DNA of 64,000 bases, taken from NCBI GenBank assembly GCA_035279405.1, contig DATEHU010000026.1:386147-450146 (forward strand), written 5' to 3'. Shown here piece by piece: positions 43,969 through 64,000 of this stretch (its first letter is position 1; each line of letters opens with the position of its first letter). Position numbers and translations under genes: made by a program. Origin of the DNA: Gammaproteobacteria bacterium. Lineage in GTDB: Bacteria; Pseudomonadota; Gammaproteobacteria; Natronospirales; REEB76. The notes under the pieces are model-generated. The model saw only the letters and a list, made by a program, of their open reading frames with translations. It was not told the origin of the DNA and did no database searches.

Positions 43969-44045
43969 TGGTAGCGGGGGCAGGATTTGAACCTGCGACC
44001 TTCGGGTTATGAGCCCGACGAGCTGCCAGACTGCTCCACCCCGCA
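43969..44045 (-). tRNA. metY: initiator tRNA-fMet (CAU)
   Basis: Manual cloverleaf: TGCGGGG-TG-GAGC-AGTCTGGCA-GCTC-G-TCGGG-CTCATAA-CCCGA-AGGTC-GCAGG-TTCAAAT-CCTGC-CCCCGCT-ACCA. Three G:C pairs close the anticodon stem, A11:U24 is present, and positions 1:72 are unpaired. It lies upstream of rimP-nusA-infB, as E. coli metY does. Confidence 0.9.
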
Positions 44046-51667: not shown

Positions 51668-54102
51668 CAGCCCTTCTCCACTGTCACGGCGGCGGTGAGC
51701 GGCGCAAACGCCGCGGTGACTGCGATGCCCGCGGGCCAGACCACTTCACCCGCCTGCACGCTTCTGTCCAGTTTCACCGGCAGTGAAACTGCGCTGCCGT
51801 TGTATTTGACCCTGGCTTGGCCGCCATCAACGAGTTTCAACCTTTCGGCATCCTCGGGAGACAGGCGCAACCATGCAGCATCGGCATCCCGCGTCTGCTG
51901 CAGCGGCCCGGCGCGGCGCACCAGCATGTCGGCCGCATACAACGGCACCTCGGCGAAACTTTGCAAGCCCGGACTTGTGGATTCCTGCGCGCTCACGATC
52001 CGGGAGCCACGAAAGCTGTTGTCCGGCTTGATCTCGCGGAGCTGCGCCTTGAGTTCGTCGCACACCTCTTCGGACGACTGATAGTCGAACCCATCCACCT
52101 GGCAGGCATTGCCCAGCACCCGCAGAATTTTCCACGCCGGCCGCGCTTCACCCAGCGGCTTGACCATGCCGGTGAAACTCTGCCAGCGGCCTTCGGCATT
52201 CACAAAAGTGCCCGAGGTTTCACCGAAGGTCGCGGCCGGCAGCAGCACCGAGGCATAACCCAGCATGCGTTCGGTCACATAGGGCGTGACGGATACGACC
52301 GCGCTCGCCGACTTGAACGCAGCCATGGCGTACGCGCCGTCCCAGCAATCGAGTTCAGGCTCCACGCCCATGAGCAGATACGCGCGGCGCGGCTGGGCGA
52401 ACATGCCTTTGGCATCCAGGCCCCGGATCGCGGCACTCTTCCCGCCCGGCAGACGATGCGGCACCGCGCCCGCGAGCCAGGCGCCCGCGCTGTTGGCGCC
52501 CTCGCTGATGTAACCAAGCTGCGCACCGGTGGCCTGCGCCAGGGCCGCGGCCAGTGCGCGCAGGTCCGCATAGTACGGATGCTGCAGCGCCAGATGTCCG
52601 AGCAGCACGGACTTGCGGCCATCCTCACGCAGCTTGGCCGCAATCGTTTTATGTATCTCGGTGGGTTTTTGCGCCTTGACAATATCCTGCAGATGCGTGG
52701 GCGCCGCTCCGCCCTGCAACGCAGCTTTCAGTATGGCCGCGAGATTCGCCGGCATGCCGCGCGTGCCGGCATTCACATACGCGGCCATCGGGAACAGGAA
52801 TTCATATTCGCGCGGATTGAGGAACATGACTTTGGCGCCGTGTGCGCCCGCCATCTGCTCGGTGTGCGCCATGAGCTGGTAGGTATAGCTGTCACTGCCC
52901 GCCTGGTTGCCGCGCATCGCCGCCATGCGCAGGCGATGCGCCAGCATCGGCGCCTCCTTGCGCGTATTGGAACCGATCACCAGCACCGCATCGAGCTGCG
53001 CCAGGTCTTCGAGCGACTGACCGAGCCACGGGAACAGCGGCTCGAACTCGTCGTCGCGGAAGTCCGCCTGCCGCAGGCGCGTATCCACACTGTGGATGCC
53101 GAGCGCGCGTACCAGTTTCTGCAGCAGGTACAGCTCTTCGAGCGTTGAATTCGGCGAGGCCAGCGCCGCGGCATCGCCGCGCACCGACTGCAGCGCCGTC
53201 GCGGCAGCCGTGAGCGCGGTTTGCCAGTCGGTCTCGCGCCACGCGCCGTCCTGCTTGATCCGCGGGCGCAGCAGGCGTTCCTGCGAATCAATCCCGGTGT
53301 AGCTGAAACGGTCGCGATCGGATATCCAGGCCTCGTTCACCGCTTCGTTGGCCCGCGACACCACGCGCATGACCTTGCCGCGCAGCACGTGACCGTAAAG
53401 ATTCGAGCCTACGCAATCGTGCGGCGAGACGCCCTCGATCTGGGTCATCTCCCAACCACGGCCGTGCATCTTGAAGGGCTTGGAATTGAGTGCGCCCACC
53501 GGACAGATGTCAATCACGTTGCCGGAGAGTTCGCTGTCCACGCTGCGCGCCACGTAGGTGCCCACCAGCGAGTGCTCGCCGCGCCCGGTATCGCCGAGTT
53601 CCTGGATGCCGCCGATTTCCTGCAGAAAGCGGATGCAGCGCGTGCAGTAAATGCAGCGCGTCATGAATGTCTGGATGAGCGGGCCGATATCGTTGTCCTT
53701 GACCGCGCGCTTGCGCTCGGAAAACCGCGCGATGTGGCGGCCGTAGCCCATGGAGAGATCCTGCAATTCGCACTCGCCGCCTTGGTCGCAGATCGGGCAG
53801 TCCAGCGGATGGTTGATGAGCAGGAACTCCATGGTGCCGCGCTGCGCGTCGAGGGCGCGCTGCGAGCGCGTGAGTACCTTCATGCCCTCGGCTACCGGCG
53901 TGGCGCAGGCCACCAGGGGCTTCGGCGCCTTCTCCACTTCCACCAGGCACATGCGGCAGTTCGCGGCTACCGAAAGTTTTTCGTGATAGCAGAAGCGCGG
54001 GATGTAAATACCCTCGCGATCCGCGGCGCAGATGATCATCTCACCCTTGTGCGCCTTGATCGGCTTGCCATCAATCTCGATGTTGACGAACGCTTCAGCC
54101 AT
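51667..54102 (-). CDS. nuoG: NADH-quinone oxidoreductase subunit G
   Basis: 811 aa with 2Fe-2[34 protein letters not shown], and a molybdopterin-like domain. Confidence 0.95.
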
Positions 54103-54125
54103 GATTCAGCAGTCTCACTTCAATC

Positions 54126-55430
54126 TCAGGCGGCCTGGCGTTTGGCGCCGGGGCCGACCAGGCAGCAGCCGTGGTCAATGTGGTATTGGAATTCGTCGCG
54201 GAAATGGCGGATGAAACCCTGTACCGGCCAGGCCGCCGCATCGCCGAAAGCGCAAATCGTATGGCCCTCGATGTGTTTGGACACGTCCACCACCATGTCG
54301 AGGTCCTGCGGCCGGCCCTGGCCGTGCTCGATGCGCGAGATCACGCGGTGCATCCAGCCGGTGCCTTCGCGGCAGGGCGTGCATTGCCCGCAGGATTCGG
54401 AGTAAAAGAAACGCGAAATCACTTCCAGCGCGCGCACCATGCAGGTGTCCTCATCCATGACCACGATCGCGCCCGAACCGAGCATCGAGCCGGCCTTGCG
54501 CAGCGAGTCGAAATCCATGTCGCAGGCCAGCATGGTGTCGGCGGGCAACACCGGCGCCGAGACCCCACCCGGAATCACGGCTTTCAGGCGCTTGCCCTTC
54601 CACACGCCGCCGGCCAGGGCGAGTAATTCCCTGAACGGCGTCCCCATCGGCACTTCGAAATTGCCGGGTTTGTCCACGTGGCCGGTGACCGAGAAAATCT
54701 TGGTGCCGCTGTTGTTAGGCTTGCCGAAGGCGGCGAACCATTTGGCGCCGTTGAGCATGATGCTCGGCACCGAAGCGAAGGTCTCGGTGTTGTTGACCGT
54801 GGTCGGGCGACCGAACACGCCGAAGTTCGCGGGAAACGGCGGCTTGAACCGCGGCCAACCTTTCTTGCCTTCAAGCGAATCCAGGAGCGCGGTTTCCTCG
54901 CCGCAGATGTAGGCGCCCGCACCGAGGTGCGAGTGGATATCCACGCGCACGCCGGATTTCAGAATGTTCTCGCCCAGCAATCCCTGCTCATAGGCTTCCT
55001 TGAGCGCCTGCTCGAAGCGCCGGTAGGGCTCGTCCGAAAATTCGCCGCGCATGTAGTTATATCCAACCTCGGCGCGCATGGCGTAGCACCCGATCGCCAT
55101 GCCTTCGACCACGGCATGCGGATTGAACCGCAGGATGTCGCGGTCCTTGCAGGTTCCGGGTTCGGATTCGTCGGAGTTGCACACCACGTAGGACGGACCG
55201 GTGGGCGTGCGCGGCATGAAGCTCCATTTCACGCCGGTGGGAAATCCCGCGCCGCCGCGCCCGCGCAGGCCCGAAGCCTTCACTTCTTCGACCACCTGTT
55301 CGGGCGGAATCTTGTCCTTGAGGATCTTCCGCCACGCCTTGTAGCCGCCCACTTTGAGATAGTTCTCGAACGTCCACGGCTGATCGAACTGCAGGGTGTT
55401 GTGGCAGACCTGATCCAGCGGAATGCTCAT
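54126..55430 (-). CDS. nuoF: NADH-quinone oxidoreductase subunit F
   Basis: Start trimmed to MSIPLDQ (M77 of the listed ORF), overlapping the nuoE stop. [10 protein letters not shown] (FMN/NADH site) and [12 protein letters not shown] (4Fe-4S). Confidence 0.95.
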
Positions 55431-55930
55431 TTCAGGCCCTCCAGGATCTTGTCCACCTTTTCCGGCGTGAGATTCTCGTAATACTTGTGATCCACCATCA
55501 TCATGGGCGCGCCGGCGCAAGCCGCCAGGCACTCCTCTTCGCGTTTCAGGTAACAGCGCCCGTCGGAGGTGCTCTCGCCGGTTTTCACGCCGAGCTTCTT
55601 TTCGATGTGCGCCACGATGTCGTCGGCACCGCGCAACATGCAGGATATATTGGTGCACACCGCGATGCTGTGCCGGCCCACGGGCTTGGTCTCGAAATTC
55701 GAGTAGAAGCTCGCGACCTCGTACACCATGATGGGCTGGAGCTTGAGATACGCGGCCACCGCATCCATCAGCTCCACGCTCAGATAGCCGCCGTTCTCGT
55801 GCTGCGCCTCGCGCAAGGCGACGAATACCGCGGAACGCAGGCGGCCGTCCGGGTATTTCTTAACGGCCTCGTCAGTCGCTTCACGCACGTGCTTCGACAG
55901 GCCCGCGGTTTTCACGGCGGTGGCGGTCAC
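55427..55930 (-). CDS. nuoE: NADH-quinone oxidoreductase subunit E
   Basis: GTG start in a GTGA overlap with the nuoD stop. 167 aa. 2Fe-2S ligands [10 protein letters not shown]...[10 protein letters not shown]. Confidence 0.9.
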
Positions 55931-57180
55931 CGGTCCACCTCGCCGAACACCAGATCCTGGGTGCCGATGATGGCCACCAGATCCTGCAGCATGTGGCCAC
56001 GCACCATCTCGTCCAGCGCCGCAAGATGCGCAAACCCGGCGGCGCGGATTTTCACGCGGAACGGTTTGTTGGCGCCGTCGGAAATCATGTAGATGCCGAA
56101 TTCGCCTTTGGGGTGCTCGATGGCTACATACGCCTCGCCTTCCGGCACGCAGTAGCCTTCGGTCATGTACTTGAAGTGGTGGATCAGGGATTCCATGTCG
56201 GATTTCATCTCTTCGCGCAGCGGCGGCGTGACCTTGTGATCCTCCAGCCACACGGGTCCGGGGTTGGCCCGCAGCCACTGGATGCACTGTTGCACGATGC
56301 GGTTCGACTGGCGCATTTCCTCGATACGCACCAGATAACGGTCGTAGCAATCGCCGTTCACGCCCACGGGGATGTCGAAATCCATCCGGTCGTAAACCGC
56401 GTAGGGCTGCTTCCGGCGCAAATCCCACTCGATGCCCGAGCCGCGCAGCATCGGTCCGGAAAATCCGAGCTGCAGCGCGCGCTCCGGTGAGACCACGCCG
56501 ATGCCGACGGTGCGCTGCTTCCAGATGCGGTTGTCGGTGAGCAGCGTCTCGTACTCGTCCACCAGTTTGGGAAAGCGCCGCGTGAAGTCCTCGATGAAAT
56601 CCAGCAGCGAGCCCTCGCGTGGCCGGTTCATGCGGCGCATGTCCCCCTGGCTGCGGAAGCGCGACTTCTGGTATTGCGGCATGTAATCGGGGAGATCGCG
56701 ATACACGCCACCGGGGCGGTAGTAAAAGGCATGCATGCGCGCCCCCGACACCGCCTCGTACATGTCCATGATGTCTTCGCGCTCACGGAAGCAATACAGG
56801 AACACCGTGAGCGCGCCGATATCCATGGCGTGCGATCCCAGCCACAGCAGGTGATTGGTGATGCGCGTCAGTTCGTCGTACAGGGTGCGGATGTATTGCG
56901 CGCGCACCGGCGGCTCGATGCCCATGAGCTTCTCGATGGCGAGCACGTAGGCGTGCTCGTTGCACATCATGGACACGTAATCCAGCCGGTCCATATAGCC
57001 GATGCTCTGGTGGTAGATCTTGCTTTCCATGAGTTTTTCGGTGGCGCGGTGCAACAGCCCGATGTGCGGGTCCGCCTTGGTGACCACTTCGCCGTCCATC
57101 TCCAGGATCAGGCGCAGCACGCCGTGCGCGGACGGATGCTGCGGTCCGAAGTTCATGGTGTAGTTGCGGATCTCAGGCAT
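55927..57180 (-). CDS. nuoD: NADH-quinone oxidoreductase subunit D
   Basis: Start trimmed to [24 protein letters not shown] (M14). 417 aa. Confidence 0.95.
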
Positions 57181-57865
57181 CTTTCGGCAAATCCTTGAAC
57201 GCTGGCACGTAGCGCGCATCCTGCCGGATCACGCGCGGCACCAGCACGCGGCGGTCAATGACCACCGGCTCGTACACCACGCGCTTTTTCTCCGGGTCAT
57301 AGCGCACTTCGACATTGCCGGAAAGCGGGAAATCCTTGCGGAACGGATGGCCCACGAAACCATAATCGGTGAGAATGCGACGCAGATCGGGATGCCCGTT
57401 GAACAGGATGCCGAAAAAGTCGAAGGCTTCACGTTCGAACCAGTTGGCCGAAGCCCAGATGTCGGTGACCGAGTCCATCATGGGCGGGTCGTCCGGACAA
57501 TAGGCGCGCAGCCGCAGGCGCTGGTTGTGCCGGATCGAGAGCAGGTGATAAACTACGGCAAAGCGCGGAGTTTTGCGCGCCTCGATGTCCCAGGTCCGGC
57601 GGTTGGCGCCGCGTGCAAATCCGGTGGCCGTGGCGTGCTGCGTGAGCCACTCATCCTCGCCGTAACCGAGGTAATCCACCCCGCATACATCCATGAGCTG
57701 TTCGAACTGGAACGGCTCCTCGTCGCGCAACGCCCGGCAGATATCGCGCACATCGGCCGCGGGCAATTCGCAGGTCAACTGGTCCACGCTCGACGGCACC
57801 TGCGTCAGCTTCTTCCCGAAGCGCGCTTCGAGTGCGCCGGCGAGTTTGTCGGTGGCCATGCTCAT
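57173..57865 (-). CDS. nuoC: NADH-quinone oxidoreductase subunit C
   Basis: 230 aa, 30-kDa subunit family ([26 protein letters not shown]). Confidence 0.93.
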
Positions 57866-57877
57866 GAATTCATCCGG

Positions 57878-58357
57878 CTAACGCGCAATCGTGTTGGTGC
57901 GCTTGATCTTCTTCTGCAGCTGAATGATGCCGTACAGAAGCTGCTCGGCGCTCGGCGGGCAGCCGGGGACGTACACGTCCACCGGCACGATGCGGTCGCA
58001 ACCGCGCACCACCGCATAGGAATAGTGATAGTAGCCGCCGCCGTTGGCGCACGAGCCCATGGAAATCACCCAGCGCGGCTCGGGCATCTGGTCGTACACC
58101 TTGCGCAGCGGCGGCGCCATCTTGTTGACCAGCGTGCCGGCCACGATCATCACGTCGGATTGGCGCGGACTGGGACGGAAGATCACGCCAAAGCGGTCCA
58201 GGTCGTAACGCGCGGCGCCCGCGTGCATCATTTCCACGGCGCAGCACGCCAGGCCGAAGGTCATGGGCCAGAGCGACCCGGTGCGCGCCCAGTTGACCAC
58301 CGCATCCACACTGGTGGTGACGAAACCGCCCTGCTCGCTGCGCGGCCCTACTCCCAT
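57878..58357 (-). CDS. nuoB: NADH-quinone oxidoreductase subunit B
   Basis: Start trimmed to [15 protein letters not shown] (M74). Cluster N2 ligands [20 protein letters not shown] and VPGCPP. 159 aa. Confidence 0.93.
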
Positions 58358-58716
58358 TCCAGCGCTCCCTTCTTCCACTCGTAGATAAAGCCGACCACCA
58401 GAATGCCGAGGAAGATCATCATGGCGTAGAAGCCGAACAGGTCCATGCCGTGCAGCGTCACTGCCCAGGGAAACAGGAAGGCGATTTCGAGATCGAAGAT
58501 GATGAACAGGATCGCGACCAGGTAGTAGCGCACGTCGAATTTTGCGCGGCTGTCCGCGAAAGGCTCGAAGCCGCACTCGTAAGGAGAGTCTTTCTCGCTG
58601 TCGGGGCGGCGATTGCGCAACAACGTGCTGGCCACGAACCCGGCGCCCACCAGCACGCAGCCAAAAAGGCCGCCCAGGATCAGGAACAGCAAGATGGGAA
58701 CGTAATTCTGGAGCAT
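58348..58716 (-). CDS. nuoA: NADH-quinone oxidoreductase subunit A
   Basis: 122 aa, 3 TM helices, YECGFEPF motif. GGTAGGAGAG SD upstream. Confidence 0.93.
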
Positions 58717-58772
58717 GCTCTCCTACCGGATACTGCGGCGATCCCCCTGCACAACCGGTCGCCGCGAGGGGC

Positions 58773-58857
58773 TGGTGCCGACGGGGAGACTCGAACTCCC
58801 ACGGTTTTACCCACTACCACCTCAAAGTAGCGTGTCTACCAATTCCACCACGTCGGC
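58773..58857 (-). tRNA. leuU: tRNA-Leu (GAG)
   Basis: Minus strand: GCCGACGTGGTGGAATTGGTAGACACGCTACTTTGAGGTGGTAGTGGGTAAAACCGTGGGAGTTCGAGTCTCCCCGTCGGCACCA. Anticodon loop TTGAGGT, long variable arm. It lies downstream of secG, as E. coli secG-leuU does. Confidence 0.9.
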
Positions 58858-58952
58858 AATGTGGGTTGCAGGTACCGGCGCGTTTGCCAGTCGTCCACAG
58901 AGGCAGGCAATTTTAACGTATCGCAACGCCAAAAGGCGATGCGCGGGTCACG

Positions 58953-59348
58953 TCATCGACCGCCGGGAGGTTTGGCCGGCGGCTTGGTCACGGCTGCGGG
59001 CGGCCCGGAAGCCCCCGAAGATGGCTTGGCTATCGGCGGTTGCTGTACGGCCGGCTGTGAAGTTGCGGCCTGCTGCTGCGCGGCACGCTCCACGACGCTT
59101 TGCGGCGTCGCGGTGGTGTGATGCGACAGGTACGCCATGGCCAAAGCCAGGATGAAAAACGCCGTGGCCAGGATGGCCGTGGCGTGGCTGAGAAAATTGG
59201 CCGAGCCGCCCGCGCCGAATACCGTGCCGGAGGAACCGCTGCCGAACGCGGCGCCCGCATCCGCACCCTTGCCCTGCTGCAGCAGAATCAATGCAATCAG
59301 GGCCACCGCGACGAACACCAGGATGATTTCAAGGATCGTGTACAGCAT
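58953..59348 (-). CDS. secG: preprotein translocase subunit SecG (Pro/Ala/Gln-rich C-terminal tail)
   Basis: MLYTILEIILVFVAVALIALILLQQGKGADAGAAFGSG is a typical SecG N-terminus. 131 aa. Confidence 0.9.
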   Translation of the reverse strand: MLYTILEIILVFVAVALIALILLQQGKGADAGAAFGSGSSGTVFGAGGSANFLSHATAILATAFFILALAMAYLSHHTTATPQSVVERAAQQQAATSQPAVQQPPIAKPSSGASGPPAAVTKPPAKPPGGR

Positions 59349-59378
59349 GCAAACACTCTGAACTATAAGGTAGATGAA

Positions 59379-60134
59379 TCAAGTTGCCGCCCGGCAGATC
59401 GCCACAAACTCGGGTGCTTCCAGAGAGGCCCCACCGGCCAGGGCGCCGTCAATGTCAGGCATGTGGAACAGGTCGCCGGCGTTGGACGACTTGACGCTGC
59501 CGCCATAGATCACGCGTAAATCCGTGGCTATTTTAGCATCATCCCGCGCGATTCTTGCCCGGATCAGCGCGTGCACCTCCTGGGCTTCGGTCGGCGTTGC
59601 CATCTTGCCCGTGCCGATGGCCCACACCGGTTCGTAGGCCACCACCGCCTTGGCAAACGCGGCAATGCCGGAGGTGGCAAGCACCGCCTCGAGCTGGCGC
59701 AACACCACGACATGAGTCTCACCCCGCTCACGTTCCGCGAGCGTTTCGCCCACACACACGATAGGTATGAGCCCGGCCGTCAGCGCCGCCGCAAACTTGC
59801 GCGCCACCAGCTCGTCGCTCTCGTTATAAAAGGTACGCCGTTCGGAATGGCCGACAATCACGTATTGGCAACCGCAGTCGCGCAGCATCCCGGCCGAAAT
59901 CTCGCCGGTGTAGGCGCCGTCGGACGCAACGTCACAGACATCCTGCGCGCCGAGGCCCACCGCAGTTCCGTGCAGGACCACCGCAACCTCGGCCAAGTGT
60001 ACGTAGGGCGGACATAGCACCACGTTCGCTCGCACATCTTTTGCCACGCCCTGAACGACCGCCCCGGCCAGGCTGCGGGCGCCCTCGCGCGTGCCATGCA
60101 TCTTCCAGTTGCCGGCTATCAGTCGTTTGCGCAT
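59379..60134 (-). CDS. tpiA: triose-phosphate isomerase
   Basis: AGNWKMHG, VGHSERR and YEPVWAIGTG motifs. Confidence 0.95.
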   Translation of the reverse strand: MRKRLIAGNWKMHGTREGARSLAGAVVQGVAKDVRANVVLCPPYVHLAEVAVVLHGTAVGLGAQDVCDVASDGAYTGEISAGMLRDCGCQYVIVGHSERRTFYNESDELVARKFAAALTAGLIPIVCVGETLAERERGETHVVVLRQLEAVLATSGIAAFAKAVVAYEPVWAIGTGKMATPTEAQEVHALIRARIARDDAKIATDLRVIYGGSVKSSNAGDLFHMPDIDGALAGGASLEAPEFVAICRAAT

Positions 60135-60233
60135 GGGATCGCGCCAGTGGCTTATGCAAAAAGGTGTGAGAGCTTAGCGGTGGATTGCGTCGGAATCAAC
60201 CTTTCGGGTGGGTTAAACGTCGGGGGCACTTAC

Positions 60234-60545
60234 CTAGGGTAAATTTACCGGGGAACCCCGCATGGCATTTGGTACTGATTGCAGGAAATAAGCCAGCAAC
60301 TCGCCGTTGGCGTTGTACGCATAGCTGTTACTGCCAAAGGTCAGCAGCCGATCCTGGTTGTCGTAGGTCGCAATCATCGCCGCGTTCACGCTCACACGGT
60401 TGTCATTCTGGTCAAAACTGCAACTCGCTATCGGATCGGGCTTCTTGGTCACGCGTCGAGGCGGCCATCCTGATCGTAGCCGTCGGTCACCAGACTTTAG
60501 CCGACCACCGTCATCTGCATCCTCCGCCCTACGACATCGTGACAG
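60234..60545 (-). pseudogene. decayed YD/RHS-repeat fragment with frameshifts and in-frame stops
   Basis: My translation finds YD repeats split over three frames: ..DADDGGRLKS / VTDGYDQDGRLDA(stop) / VTKKPDPIASCSFDQNDNRVSVNAAMIATYDNQDRLLTFGSNSYAYNANGELL. Similarity is then lost. Confidence 0.7.
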
Positions 60546-60571
60546 CAGCTTATTTCCGCAGGAGTCATAGT

Positions 60572-60895
60572 CTATTCTGTGTTTGGCGCTCCGCTGAAGC
60601 GATTACTAAGCGTTTCCAATAAACGTCGCCCATGAATCACGGCAAGGATATGCAGCCTGTCGCCTTGTATCTCGTAGATAAGACGGTAACTGTAAAGAAA
60701 TCGTTCGCGCACGTGCTCATCGTTCAGTTCTGGCACCACGCGTCCAAGCTTTGGTTGCTCGACAACCGCTTCGGCAATCGTGAAGAATTCTTGGGTTACC
60801 CGGCGGGCATGGTAGGAGGAATCGCGACTGATGTATTCGGCAATGGCAGAAACATCGTTAAGCGCTTCGTTCGACCAAATCAGTCTTGCAGCCAT
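60572..60895 (-). CDS. type II toxin, ParE/RelE family
   Basis: 107 aa with WSNEALNDVSAIAEYI.. and ..FLYSYRLIYEIQGDRLHILAVIHGRRLL, a typical ParE/RelE fold signature. 16-nt overlap with the upstream small ORF. Confidence 0.85.
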   Translation of the reverse strand: MAARLIWSNEALNDVSAIAEYISRDSSYHARRVTQEFFTIAEAVVEQPKLGRVVPELNDEHVRERFLYSYRLIYEIQGDRLHILAVIHGRRLLETLSNRFSGAPNTE

Positions 60896-61080
60896 TTTCG
60901 TAACCGCTCCTTGGCCTCTTCGTGGGTGTGGCTGTGCCCCGCCACAATGTCTGCCTGACCCCGCTTGATTTTCTCCAGCACGTACACATGATATTGAATA
61001 TCCTCCAACGTGCTGTTTTCCGGCAGATGGCCCAGGAGCTTTTCTACTTCCTGCTTGGGTGTAAGTACAGTCGCGCTCAT
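60880..61080 (-). CDS. putative cognate antitoxin
   Basis: 66 aa from MSATVLTPKQ (M17 of the listed ORF). LEDIQYHVYVLEKIKRGQADIVAGHSHTHEEAKERLRKWL resembles antitoxins found upstream of ParE-family toxins. The position and overlap also fit. Confidence 0.6.
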   Translation of the reverse strand: MSATVLTPKQEVEKLLGHLPENSTLEDIQYHVYVLEKIKRGQADIVAGHSHTHEEAKERLRKWLQD

Positions 61081-61396
61081 AACGGAATCCCTGGAAATAC
61101 TATGGTGTGATTGTAAGCCCTCCGCCATGATTTCTTCTATCGTGGCGGCGCCAGTTACTGGCAGTGATTAAGGCCAAATCGGCTAAGGCTGCGTGACTGG
61201 TAACCGCGAAGCCACCACGGTGTCCACGGCCGCGCATCACCCAACCGCCATACGTGACCCCCATGGTCGCCATAGCGTGGAGCGGCTTGCTGCATTGCGC
61301 GGGGATACGCGACCTACGGGCATTAACCAGGATTTCCATGGCGTACGGGTCCGATACAAAATAGATCTTTGGCGATTCATCTGGCAACATCCAAGT

Positions 61397-61714
61397 CTAT
61401 ATATGTGATGCAGAATCAACTCTCAGTGACCCGAACGGTTGAAACCCCGGATTGCTGTCCGAGGTGACATTGCCCCAAGCATCGTAGGTAATCTGCTCTG
61501 CGACGGCGCCGGTCGAAGCGTTCACGATCAACACCGGACTCCCGGCTTGATCGGCAACAACGCGATACTCCACTCCACCCTTCATGATGTAATCCGGCAC
61601 GTTCGGGCGGGTACCGTACACAAATTGCTCGACGACGTTGCCGGAGCCGTCAAATTCCGCCACTGGTTCCAATTGGCCATCGCATAGGAGCCACTTGGTA
61701 AACGTATCGATCAC
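61397..61714 (-). pseudogene. orphan YD/RHS core-tip fragment lacking a toxin domain
   Basis: [84 protein letters not shown] matches 76 of 84 residues of 62864-63115. It then diverges (SLRVDSASHI, stop). It begins 3 nt after the upstream immunity stop, with no SD. Confidence 0.75.
61430..61681 (-). repeat. copy B of the 252-nt RHS core-tip repeat
   Basis: Manual codon-by-codon alignment to 62864-63115 gives about 201 of 252 nt identical. Most differences are synonymous. Confidence 0.8.
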
Positions 61715-61717
61715 GTC

Positions 61718-62233
61718 TTACGCTTGCTTATTAAACTGCGGGCACTTTGACCGTAGCTCTGCTACCATTTGATCAAAGTCTTCAAATAATCCACTAATTA
61801 ACAGTCGTTTGTTACCACGTGTATGTATGATCAGTTGATTGTCTCGGTCCGAATGCCCTTTTGTCGTAATTGTGCTGATATCACGAAACTCAATCCGGTG
61901 CTCTCTGAGTCCAATATATGTTATGGATTCCTTATTTATTATTACGCGAGCTTTCCGTATGTAAATTGCCGCCACCATTGCCACCACGAAAGCGGGGCAC
62001 AAAGCAACCTCGACGGGCAGAAGGTTATCCCGCCTTGGCAGGAACAAAATCACGATAATAAGCACAGCGCAAATTAGAGAGAAAATATACAGAAACCAGT
62101 ACCACGGTGGCGGATATCTATAGGTGCTGAAACCATGCGCTTCCTTGTGATGAAACAAGCCCCCCAAAATCAATAACACAGTGATACCAACTGCAGCACC
62201 GATATATGCTATACCGACGTTCGCACCGGTCAT
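61718..62233 (-). CDS. putative immunity protein: 3-TM N-terminus plus PH-like C-terminal domain
   Basis: The ATG abuts the TAG of the upstream toxin ORF (TAGATG). Three hydrophobic helices (about aa 6-27, 44-66, 75-92), then a beta-rich tail KESITYIGLREHRIEFRDISTITTKG..LIIHTRGNKRLLISG reminiscent of bacterial PH (DUF304-like) domains. AT-rich. Confidence 0.6.
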   Translation of the reverse strand: MTGANVGIAYIGAAVGITVLLILGGLFHHKEAHGFSTYRYPPPWYWFLYIFSLICAVLIIVILFLPRRDNLLPVEVALCPAFVVAMVAAIYIRKARVIINKESITYIGLREHRIEFRDISTITTKGHSDRDNQLIIHTRGNKRLLISGLFEDFDQMVAELRSKCPQFNKQA

Positions 62234-63214
62234 CTATGGTCTCTGTGAGGAACTGTTTGCGGCTGCCGGGATCTTCCCTACCGCTGGCAAGCCTTGGCTT
62301 ACCCCAAAATTGATGTTTTCCGCTTCACGATAGAAAAATCCCGCCTGATCCTGCGCGGCTTGCTTTATTGATACCCCTGCGCCCAAGCCAGCAACTTCGC
62401 TGAATCCGCTCAGTAACCCCGCCGCCAGTACCTCTCTACCGTTCACACAGCCATAATTTGACTGCTCCCGGAGTGCTTCAATACCCGCAGTCGCAAGCCC
62501 ACGCCCAGCAATGCCAGCTCCCTCGACAAGCAGGGAACCACCGAATGTGAGGCCAGCGAGCGCACCCGTTGCCGCACCGGCGCCAAAGTCTCTGTCTAGA
62601 GCCCAACCACGATCACCGTTTAAATAGCCACTTGCGAGCTCCAACCCACCTCCTATAAGTCCGCCGACAACTGCCAATACGGGTCCACGACCATTAGCGT
62701 CGAAATCGTTGATTGGATCATCGAGCACGTATCCGTAGAGGTTACTGTCTCCACCCGCAAACAGAATCGGATCGCGGCTGATCCACCTCCCCGTCTGCGG
62801 GTCATAATCCCGCGTTCCAAAATGCACGAACCCGGTATCACGATCATACAACCCGCCCGCAAACCCAAATGGCTGAAATCCCGGATTTGAGTCGGACGTG
62901 ACATTGCCCCAAGCGTCGTAACTGATCTGCTCGGCGACGGCGCCGGTCGAGGCATTCACAATCAGCACCGGACTGCCGACCTGGTCGCTAATCACCCGAT
63001 ATTCCGCCCCGCCCTTCATGATGTAATCCGGCACGTTCGGGCGAGTGCCGTACACGAACTGCTCGACAATGTTGCCGGAGCCATCCAGCATCGCAACGGG
63101 CTCAAGCTGCCCGTCGTACAGGAAACCCTGGACCAACGTGCCGTTCACTTCCTTGCCCACCAAACGGTTCTGACCATTATAGTTGGCGTGAATGTTCTTA
63201 CTCTCCGCCGCCAC
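62234..63214 (-). CDS. orphan YD/RHS core tip fused to a glycine-zipper-rich C-terminal toxin domain
   Basis: Teneurin-like core end [77 protein letters not shown], then a 151-aa Gly/Ala-rich hydrophobic tail. No SD or ATG; the listed start is a GTG inside the core homology. Confidence 0.75.
62864..63115 (-). repeat. copy A of the 252-nt RHS core-tip repeat
   Basis: See copy B. Both copies are in direct orientation on the minus strand. Confidence 0.8.
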
Positions 63215-63258
63215 ATCCGTGACGACCCCCCAAGTCCCCGTAGATTCAGCCTGCGTGC

Positions 63259-63783
63259 CTAACCATCGAAGGACTGAAGATAATACTTAGTATCCTGTAG
63301 TAATTCGCGCTGGTGGATGTCCAACGAGAGACGACGACGTGTTACGCGCACGTTGTTGAAATCAATTTTTACAATATACGCTTCCGCAGCATCGCCCACC
63401 CAGAAAATGAGTGCCAATTGCTGATTTCCATTGTCCGTAACAAGCATGCCGCGATCCAGGTCGGCAAGGTCGCAAAAGACTGATCGTGGGACAAATATGT
63501 TTTTCCCGTTAACCGATATGGTAACGTTATCCACCACGCTACAAGGCACCCTACTATTTGTGCAACTTGTAAATTTAGTCGCCGTGGTGTCTATGTGACT
63601 CGGGGTTCCATTCTGAATTTCATGTGTTTTAATTGTTACAACTACATTGACATTTTTAATAGTGGTACTAATGATTGTATTACCTTTAGGAAGTATTTTA
63701 ACTGCGTCTAGGAAATTCTGTGCTTGCGCTGTTAGCGCAACGAAAAGACAAGCACCCCCTAGCGAAACCAGAGTACGCCTCAT
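63259..63783 (-). CDS. putative periplasmic immunity protein (signal peptide)
   Basis: 174 aa with [23 protein letters not shown], a Sec signal with an AQA cleavage site. ATGA overlap with the upstream toxin stop. Very AT-rich: 18 G+C in the 60 nt at 63601-63660. Confidence 0.6.
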
Positions 63784-64000
63784 GGCACCACCTGCAATAT
63801 ATCATCGGGTGGACTGTTACGCATGCTTGCCACCAGCTTACGCAGCCGACGATCGGATACGATGCAGCCGTTAGATGAAGTTTTACCTGTATCGTTACGC
63901 TTGGGCCCATGCCAGAAGAAGCCGCTCCGCCCATGCATTTCATTCCCAGAAAACGGTGTGAGCGGCAAGGCATATTGCAATACATGACCTTCATTGGTCA
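63780..64000 (-). CDS. C-terminal end of a larger toxin ORF (open at the window edge) with a Tlde1/DUF2778-like L,D-transpeptidase-fold motif
   Basis: The frame is open to base 64000: ..TNEGHVLQYALPLTPFSGNEMHGRSGFFWHGPKRNDTGKTSSNGCIVSDRRLRKLVASM... The GRSGF-x-HG...S-x-GCI spacing matches the His/Cys catalytic pattern of the YkuD-like Tlde1 effector family as I recall it. Confidence 0.5.
   Translation of the reverse strand, partial: TNEGHVLQYALPLTPFSGNEMHGRSGFFWHGPKRNDTGKTSSNGCIVSDRRLRKLVASMRNSPPDDILQVVP

Follow-up and report, generated by a model that had tools for sequence, protein, structure and literature searches.

The window analysed here is a 64,000-nucleotide (nt) stretch of a gammaproteobacterial contig (assembly GCA_035279405.1, contig DATEHU010000026.1, positions 386,147 to 450,146 of the forward strand), whose last 3.9 kb, immediately beyond tpiA, hold a run of RHS/YD-type polymorphic-toxin fragments. 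Read along the minus strand from the window edge, seven elements, here called (a) to (g), follow one another at precisely the coordinates given in the initial annotation, which had been made from the letters of the window. We regard it as probable that together they form a headless orphan array of teneurin-like RHS/YD C-terminal fragments in an uncultured soil gammaproteobacterium. The features of the array, in the order in which they are read and with lengths in amino acids (aa) where they encode proteins, are as follows.

63780..64000, minus strand: 3' end of the module 1 toxin (a), comprising the last 72 codons and the stop of a 498-aa open reading frame (ORF)
63259..63783, minus strand: module 1 immunity candidate (b), 174 aa, with an ATGA overlap with the toxin stop and a Sec-type signal-peptide-like N-terminus
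62690..63253, minus strand: module 2 core fragment (c), the last ~188 aa of the YD shell plus core
62234..62689, minus strand: module 2 toxin tail, 151 aa, with 20% Gly, 17% Ala and 10 GxxxG motifs
61718..62233, minus strand: module 2 immunity candidate (d), 171 aa, whose start abuts the toxin stop (TAGATG)
61397..61717, minus strand: module 3 remnant (e), a core-tip copy 3 nt after the stop of (d)
61129..61428, minus strand: 300-nt filler between the truncated module 3 and a toxin-antitoxin (TA) pair, holding a 96-aa ORF
60880..61128, minus strand: putative antitoxin, 66-82 aa, overlapping parE by 16 nt
60572..60895, minus strand: ParE/RelE-family toxin (f), 107 aa (PF05016, 62.7 bits, cut-off 23)
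60234..60530, minus strand: module 4 remnant (g), YD repeats with frameshifts that derive from higher up the shell and lack their 3' portion

The identity of the array follows from frames (a) and (c). Frame (c) is open from 63286 and ends at 62234 without an ATG, the only available starts being TTG codons and a GTG at 63214, the first possible start, which lies 44 nt beyond the stop codon of (b). Against TIGR03696 (Rhs_assc_core; cut-off 32.5) the frame scores 70.6 bits, and against PF25023 (TEN_YD-shell; cut-off 50) 56.7 bits; it passes a core-ending motif of the DPxxxxDxxG(L/R) type and then continues for exactly 151 aa more. Conserved Asp-containing motifs, which bear on a possible autoproteolytic release of the tail, are present in the array sequence. 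Frame (a), whose stop codon occupies 63780-63782, consists of a partial YD shell, an RHS core tip (..YAYVVNDPVDLDDQMGL) that includes the same core-ending motif and a C-terminal Tlde1-type domain of ~137 aa; it reaches 102 bits on PF25023 and 57 bits on PF05593, and the core of (c) is 75% identical to its residues 187-372. As the initial annotation had supposed, the ORF that runs off the window is a polymorphic-toxin frame of the RHS type, which has a core tip and ends in a toxin domain, and two of the profiles that the annotation singled out for the family (TIGR03696 for (c) and PF05593 for (a)) are among those matched.

Sequence past the window edge was obtained from contig L086 (ENA ERZ27257070, 204,668 nt), which is 100% identical to window positions 52234-64000. 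On this contig the edge ORF is only 498 aa long (L086 7939-9435) and is not a full-length RHS gene: it spans positions 597-871 of the 909 in the TEN_YD-shell profile and thereby covers the last third of the shell, the core tip and the toxin tail. Upstream (5') of it lie five translationally coupled ORFs of 838, 245, 177, 248 and 827 aa, in which domain searches returned Ig-like or no recognised domains and no YD, PAAR or VgrG domain, and the island ends at glmM, 7.4 kb further upstream of the edge ORF. Up to glmM, no island ORF encodes a full-length RHS protein, PAAR, VgrG or another delivery function, and none combines a signal peptide with a TTR/FN-plug/NHL anchoring region. The array is headless on this contig. 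The initial annotation had seen in the window the 3' part of a locus whose main gene lay upstream and had looked to the DNA past 64000 for a full-length YD/RHS ORF with delivery genes; we abandon both expectations, because the edge ORF is itself 5'-truncated and the island reaches glmM without a main gene.

The array occupies the 3.9 kb next to tpiA in a low-GC island of 12.5 kb, which is inserted between its two boundary genes, glmM and tpiA.

59379..60134, minus strand: tpiA, island boundary (PF00121, TIM; GC 64%)
L086 1-582, outside the window: 3' end of a glmM-like gene, the other island boundary (PGM_PMM domains)

Loci with both genes were taken from a tpiA search of the GTDB species representatives, in which the best tpiA match is only 62% identical, so that no close genomes are represented. 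In 17 loci of related gammaproteobacteria, glmM is next to tpiA, with 67-228 nt between them, and because of this close spacing we take the array to be part of a 12.5-kb insertion. The composition of the locus is foreign. Windowed GC lies at 0.60-0.66 over the 10 kb that precede the island (nuo to tpiA) and falls to 0.44-0.58 in the region, and GC across the island is 43-60% versus 62-64% in its flanks; at third codon positions (GC3), the cores have 69-72% GC, the tails 49%, the immunity genes 42-46% and tpiA 75%. Within the single frame (c), GC3 is 69% in the core versus 49% in the tail, and the overall GC contents of genes b and d are 43.8% and 44.6%. The spot counts behind the earlier impression of atypical composition (18/60 at 63601-63660 and 41/60 at 59581-59640, in tpiA) were reproduced exactly, and the windowed GC drop and the GC3 pattern now put that impression on a computed basis. 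At the island limits there are no border repeats, no integrase gene and no edge tRNA gene, a tandem-repeat scan of 59000-64000 found nothing, and an Rfam scan of the whole window returned two tRNAs only, both outside the array region.

Several features of the surroundings may be recorded here. The two tRNA genes lie at 58776-58857 and 43972-44045, the first being a tRNA-Leu(GAG) gene between secG and nuoA; the usual gene order is glmM-tpiA-secG-tRNA-nuo, an arrangement that the island interrupts. Wider gaps between glmM and tpiA were found in metagenome-assembled genomes (MAGs) of Frateuria (2.7 kb; L013 7311-10001), Thiobacillaceae (6.4 kb; L029 3558-10001) and Lysobacterales (0.9 kb; L077 9097-10001), and the site may be a recurrent insertion point. 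The five coupled genes in the glmM-proximal part of the island (L086 885-7856, 1.4-8.3 kb past the window edge) are joined by ATGA start/stop overlaps: the run opens with the 838-aa protein, which is secreted and rich in Ig-like domains (Big_13, Big_6 and Glucodextran_B), and continues with two paralogous pairs, the first of 245 aa and 164-177 aa, the second of 248 aa and 827 aa. The N-terminus of the 827-aa protein is repeated, in truncated form, by the 177-aa ORF. The 827-aa protein has a signal peptide and no relative in Pfam, NCBIfam or the PDB; an assignment of this protein as a zinc phospholipase C found no support in these three collections and was dropped. The run could be a second duplicated secreted-protein system.

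Module 1 pairs a toxin of recognisable type with an exported partner. The whole tail of (a) scores 47.2 and 46.1 bits on the Pfam profile Tlde1_dom (PF10908; cut-off 30.1), and the 72 aa inside the window alone score 20.8 bits, below the cut-off; its identity became visible only because the whole domain could be read from beyond the window edge. Its AlphaFold (AF2) model has a mean predicted local distance difference test score (pLDDT) of 93.2, and the 14 best PDB matches of that model are all L,D-transpeptidases or carboxypeptidases, LdtMt1, Bd1075, Pgp2 and DpaA among them (probability 0.63-1.00, and at least 0.97 for the first 12; template modelling scores 0.46-0.58). His95, Gly109 and Cys110 are invariant in an alignment of (a) with 20 homologous tails, and the sequence profile of the tail aligns its HG...S-x-GC motif to PDB entry 4lpq (E=0.019); in (a) the motif reads S-N-G-C, at a position that varies in the subfamily among H, E, Q, N, R and T. 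As judged from these profile matches and the predicted structure, tail (a) is a member of the characterised Tlde1 family with an L,D-transpeptidase fold, and as such it would attack periplasmic peptidoglycan. Relatives of this tail among the matches listed are all 498 aa or shorter, and a full-length RHS fusion is not among them.

Protein b has no relative in Pfam, NCBIfam or the PDB, and a metagenome scan with it gave no matches. On contigs L093 and L094, a Tlde1 tail 71% identical to that of (a) has behind it, with the same ATGA overlap, a 174-aa protein homologous to b (55% identity), and the ORFs that follow the Tlde1 modules of contig L087 are weakly similar to b (26-30% identity). From its position, its signal-peptide-like N-terminus and this recurrence, b is likely the exported immunity protein of tail (a).

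The tail of module 2 belongs to no named family. It has no Pfam match and no meaningful PDB match, its family members give sub-threshold matches only, to Gly-zipper and Tim17-like models, and it finds only 19 matches at E<1e-3 among 1.84 billion cluster representatives. Several of these matches form the C-terminal ends of RHS proteins, one of them P0138 with its 1822 aa, and in P0135 (550 aa) a tail of the same type stands behind a longer stretch of YD repeats. A word-indexed homology search with the tail returned P0068 only, and a metagenome scan with the tail alignment one locus, L090, on a contig that ends before any immunity gene. AF2 models the tail as five helices, with a first hairpin at pLDDT 83-90 and a low-scoring remainder. 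The initial annotation had found neither tail assignable to a characterised family, a statement that stands for (c) and falls for (a).

Gene d, the immunity candidate of module 2, has three hydrophobic, presumably transmembrane segments in hydropathy analysis and a small soluble C-terminal domain, and its family matches (DUF6560, DUF986 and bPH_1) are all sub-threshold. Identical copies of d occur in four other metagenome contigs, and contig L091 carries a diverged c/d pair, with the toxin 84% and the immunity protein 74% identical, behind a different truncation point. Against the L091 homologues, the ratio of nonsynonymous to synonymous substitution rates (dN/dS) is 0.07 for the (c) tail and 0.14 for d, and both are under purifying selection. 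By analogy with Tse5-CT, the ionophores of contact-dependent growth inhibition (CDI) and EsxX, and not by membership in any of these families, the (c) tail would insert into and depolarise the inner membrane. We propose the (c) tail and d as a candidate new toxin-immunity family, built on a rare type of toxin that has no family name.

The remaining modules are damaged. The core tip (e) is 78% identical in DNA to that of module 2 over 289 nt, leaves the family sequence after ..PGFQPFG, with homology ending at 61429 and a stop 10 codons later, and scores 17.6 bits on the YD-shell profile, below the cut-off, ending before the core-terminating motif. In contig L002 the same module is undamaged and consists of two ORFs in succession, of 292 and 145 aa; the homology of this contig to the window also ends at 61429. 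The filler beyond this point has no homologue, no family match for its 96-aa ORF, no match in a plasmid collection and no informative repeats. Next to it, a ParE-fold toxin and a small overlapping upstream gene, which has no family match in Pfam or NCBIfam, fit a type II ParE/RelE TA pair, and no terminal repeats, plasmid match or island-border repeats mark its insertion. The frameshifted remnant (g), whose YD repeats lie at about 60290-60530, is 69% identical to residues 116-176 of (a), and its DNA is 78.5% identical to the 5' part of a 427-aa module of L002. Because homology stops at 61429 and (g) matches a later module of L002, we conclude that the window, set against an array like that of L002, has lost about 4 kb and acquired the filler and the ParE pair.

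Comparison with related loci locates the unit of exchange in module 2.

61700..62800, minus strand: exchanged cassette block of 1.1 kb, made up of the final ~100 nt of core sequence together with the tail and immunity gene of module 2

Over this block the window is 97-100% identical to contigs L002, L003 and L005, whereas the YD-core DNA on either side is 73-90% identical, a mosaic that, in these alignments, marks a recent exchange of cassettes through recombination in the repeated core tips. Module content differs between the arrays as well: L002, a farmland-soil contig with an identical d, has at least 7 modules, its array running on for at least 5 more, and module 1 of L092 has the same head junction as (a) followed by a different tail and a Sel1 immunity gene. 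Toxin and immunity genes stay linked as they diverge, both in the c/d pair of L091 and in the a/b pair of L093. The cassette turnover that the initial annotation anticipated from a comparison of related genomes is therefore seen in the number of modules in L002, in the different content of L092 and in the mosaic identity. L092 (GCA_035278105.1, DATEJI010000081.1) is filed as a MAG of Candidatus Saccharimonadales, and its DNA is ~82% identical to the window array; it is probably mis-binned. The array of L087 (1-21038 of a 3.6-Mb contig, ERZ25039480) exceeds 21 kb and holds at least 12 short YD-shell ORFs, two Tlde1 modules among them, and, at positions expected for immunity genes, several ORFs with Peptidase_S26/S24 domains; the stretch covered stops short of the array's head.

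The nearest full-length relatives of the cores are teneurin-like proteins, encoded on contigs L089 and L088. The L089 protein, 2474 aa long, has a signal peptide as well as PKD, TTR_TEN1-4, TEN_NHL and YD-shell domains; it shares 55% identity with (a) over its last 350 aa, and an immunity-sized ORF and three orphan modules follow it. L088 has the same architecture, split by frameshifts. No full-length gene stands beside the close relatives with visible upstream context, which extends over 10 kb each in L086, L095 and L096, 4 kb in L090 and ~400 nt in L091 and L093. The module of L095 (3288-9863) lies directly behind restriction-modification-type genes (a methyltransferase and a ResIII helicase), that of L096 (1209-9393) behind IS3, IS481 and ISL3 transposase genes, that of L090 behind a tyrosine recombinase and that of L093 behind an acs-like gene. 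The settings of L095 and L096 suggest that the cassettes travel with mobile or defence-island DNA.

Projected onto main-gene coordinates, the truncation points of 116 database relatives spread continuously from 1763 to 2070, and because of this continuous spread the fragments have no defined N-terminus. A leader of ~110 nt 5' of (a) is 67% identical between L086 (7857-7990) and L092 (1-124), with an alignment score of 14 against a mean of 4.3 and a maximum of 12 in 300 shuffles, and no start codon or leader peptide is conserved between the two contigs. The contigs of P0142 begin 21-28 nt upstream of the ORF, where the comparison of head junctions therefore ends. A defined "mini-RHS" protein of ~500-600 aa was considered as the principal explanation and rejected on the continuous N-termini and the missing conserved start codon.

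The array is laid out as C-terminal displacement would be expected to leave it. Each module consists of a shell/core piece of variable length that runs to the RHS core motif, a toxin tail that differs between modules and an immunity gene whose first codon touches the stop of the toxin; under displacement, incoming tip-toxin-immunity cassettes would recombine in the conserved core and push older cassettes downstream. Module 1 carries a Tlde1-type toxin, which would attack peptidoglycan, and its likely Sec-exported immunity protein, and module 2 a glycine-zipper tail that may depolarise the inner membrane together with a putative three-transmembrane immunity protein; module 3 has lost its toxin to the indel that brought in the ParE TA pair, and module 4 is a frameshifted scrap. 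Because no intact RHS or delivery gene lies in the island, the toxins presumably cannot be launched from this locus. What the locus may now provide is immunity, through b and d, against the toxins of neighbours, and the array could in addition act as a reservoir from which cassettes recombine with a full-length gene at another place in the genome, should there be one.

Other explanations have to be set against this one. One takes the visible fragments as the 3' end of an RHS locus that is complete and active, with main and delivery genes just past the window edge; the edge ORF does carry a core tip and a toxin tail, and the layout of L089 (a 2474-aa main gene, an immunity gene and orphan modules) provides a precedent. 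We give this reading almost no credence, as the edge ORF is 498 aa long, the ORFs upstream are unrelated and contain no YD, PAAR or VgrG domain, and glmM follows 7.4 kb on, so that for this contig it is refuted unless L086 is mis-assembled at ~7900. It is also highly unlikely that the modules act as internal TA pairs, in which truncated toxins made from internal starts are held in check by the immunity proteins. Main and orphan Rhs genes of Salmonella do have internal promoters and behave in a TA-like manner (PMC7043789), the tails and immunity genes of the window are intact and under purifying selection, and GTG and TTG starts occur in frames (a) and (c). A Tlde1-type toxin acts in the periplasm, however, yet tail (a) has no export signal; an exported b would be unable to act on a toxin in the cytoplasm, a related teneurin-like membrane toxin is harmless without a signal peptide (PMC13018210), and the start codons are not conserved between L086 and L092. 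That the locus is pure wreckage, a functionless, decaying RHS remnant whose ORFs are still intact through too little elapsed time, we consider unlikely. It would account for the headless array, the truncation of module 3, the frameshifts of module 4 and the TA pair standing where modules were lost, but b, d and the two tails have remained whole, c and d persist elsewhere as intact, diverged pairs (dN/dS 0.07-0.14), the a/b pair recurs too, and a near-identical cassette in diverged backgrounds implies recent acquisition, not slow decay.

The orphan-array reading has evidence against it as well, part of which favours yet another explanation, namely that short YD-tip modules are maintained, translated units, either C-terminal subunits that complete a separate shell (as TcC does with TcB) or self-mobile cassettes. 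The 240 best database relatives are all 602 aa or shorter, no full-length gene accompanies the close relatives whose context is visible, and the YD parts of (a) and of L092 module 1 share a junction across which dN/dS is 0.09 at a synonymous divergence (dS) of ~0.9, which would be strange in a remnant that is not translated, unless functional copies have acted on it by gene conversion. Also weighing against an orphan array are the promoter and terminator scans of the region, which were at chance level; a main gene elsewhere in the genome, which is a supposition of that reading, the search having covered the island on L086; and the activity ascribed to the (c) tail, which is read from composition and a low-confidence model (mean pLDDT 55.7). 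The first of these agrees at the same time with the initial annotation's description of promoter-less orphan core-tip/toxin/immunity modules, as do the missing ATG in (c) and the coupled starts of b and d. Maintained units remain somewhere between unlikely and highly unlikely in our estimation: the N-termini form a continuum with no common boundary and no conserved start or leader peptide, the lengths are explicable by short metagenome contigs and by orphans outnumbering main genes, and gene conversion can explain the low dN/dS, plausibly so because the mosaic pattern is seen. A small chance is left that the fragments are translated and selected, in which case the (c) tail and its three-transmembrane partner would, in addition, be a new membrane-targeting toxin/immunity family.

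Taken as an orphan array, the locus would extend the orphan-cassette layout of Rhs and CDI loci to teneurin-like YD toxins in uncultured soil bacteria, and its 1.1-kb toxin-immunity block, near-identical inside diverged arrays, is a clean natural example of cassette exchange. Among its contents is one candidate for a new toxin-immunity pair, in which a rare glycine-zipper tail is matched with a three-transmembrane immunity protein. Both tails appear to act on the envelope, which fits the idea that teneurin-like toxins deliver only to the periplasm of the target. Current understanding is not overturned by any of this, and the locus is of a familiar kind, an RHS/YD orphan toxin-immunity array.

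The closest parallel is with the orphan rhs-CT/rhsI modules, whose likely role is that of immunity repertoires and for which the established model of core-tip recombination predicts a mosaic like that seen around module 2 (Poole et al. 2011, PMC3150448); C-terminal displacement goes back to Jackson et al. 2009, as cited in PMC3150448 and PMC13018210. Like these and the cdiA-CT/cdiI orphans, the modules of the window start inside the core, pass the core-ending motif and consist of a variable tail and an immediately following immunity gene. As in the rhs-CT/rhsI orphans, initiation signals are unclear, the modules stand in tandem, AT-rich tails follow a GC-rich core, content varies between strains, and a tail of the (c) type is also found at the C-terminus of a long RHS protein (P0138, 1822 aa). 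In contrast to them, no full-length rhs gene heads the array or lies elsewhere in the island, and unlike enterobacterial Rhs proteins linked to type VI secretion (T6SS), the cores of the window are of the teneurin-like YD type, and a ParE TA pair replaces part of the array.

Bacterial teneurin-like proteins (TLPs) are polymorphic toxins built on a TTR/FN-plug/NHL/YD-shell superfold, and an immunity gene lies downstream of them; the paper describing them gives their delivery route as unknown and does not mention orphan modules (0 occurrences) (PMC13018210, Nat Commun 2026). The window shares with TLPs the polymorphic tails of ~15 kDa and the immunity gene directly downstream, and its nearest full-length relatives share their architecture and signal peptide; both window tails are predicted to act outside the cytoplasm, and the TLP tail that was tested is toxic only when exported. 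Unlike TLPs, the window array has nothing upstream of the last third of the shell.

The two toxin-immunity pairs have separate counterparts. Tlde1/Tldi1 of Salmonella is a T6SS L,D-transpeptidase-like effector with a periplasmic immunity protein (PMC9638812), and module 1 resembles it in the above-cut-off Tlde1_dom match, predicted L,D-transpeptidase fold and His...Gly-Cys positions of tail (a) and in the signal peptide of b. The domain of (a) differs from Tlde1 in being fused to an RHS core instead of forming a stand-alone T6SS effector, and in its motif, S-N-G-C versus the (S/T)-H-G-C of Tlde1a (PMC9638812); b, unlike Tldi1, has no detectable relative among solved structures. For module 2, the counterparts are Tse5-CT (from an Rhs protein), the EC93-type CdiA-CT ionophores (PMC11630599) and EsxX (PMC12744356). 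The (c) tail has no detectable sequence relationship to any of them, and its conserved part is N-terminal and its variable part C-terminal, unlike theirs. It would resemble them in being small, predicted to be all-helical and rich in glycine zippers, and in having a putative integral-membrane immunity partner, and its five predicted helices, in a model of low confidence beyond the first hairpin, equal in number those of the CDI ionophore bundles.

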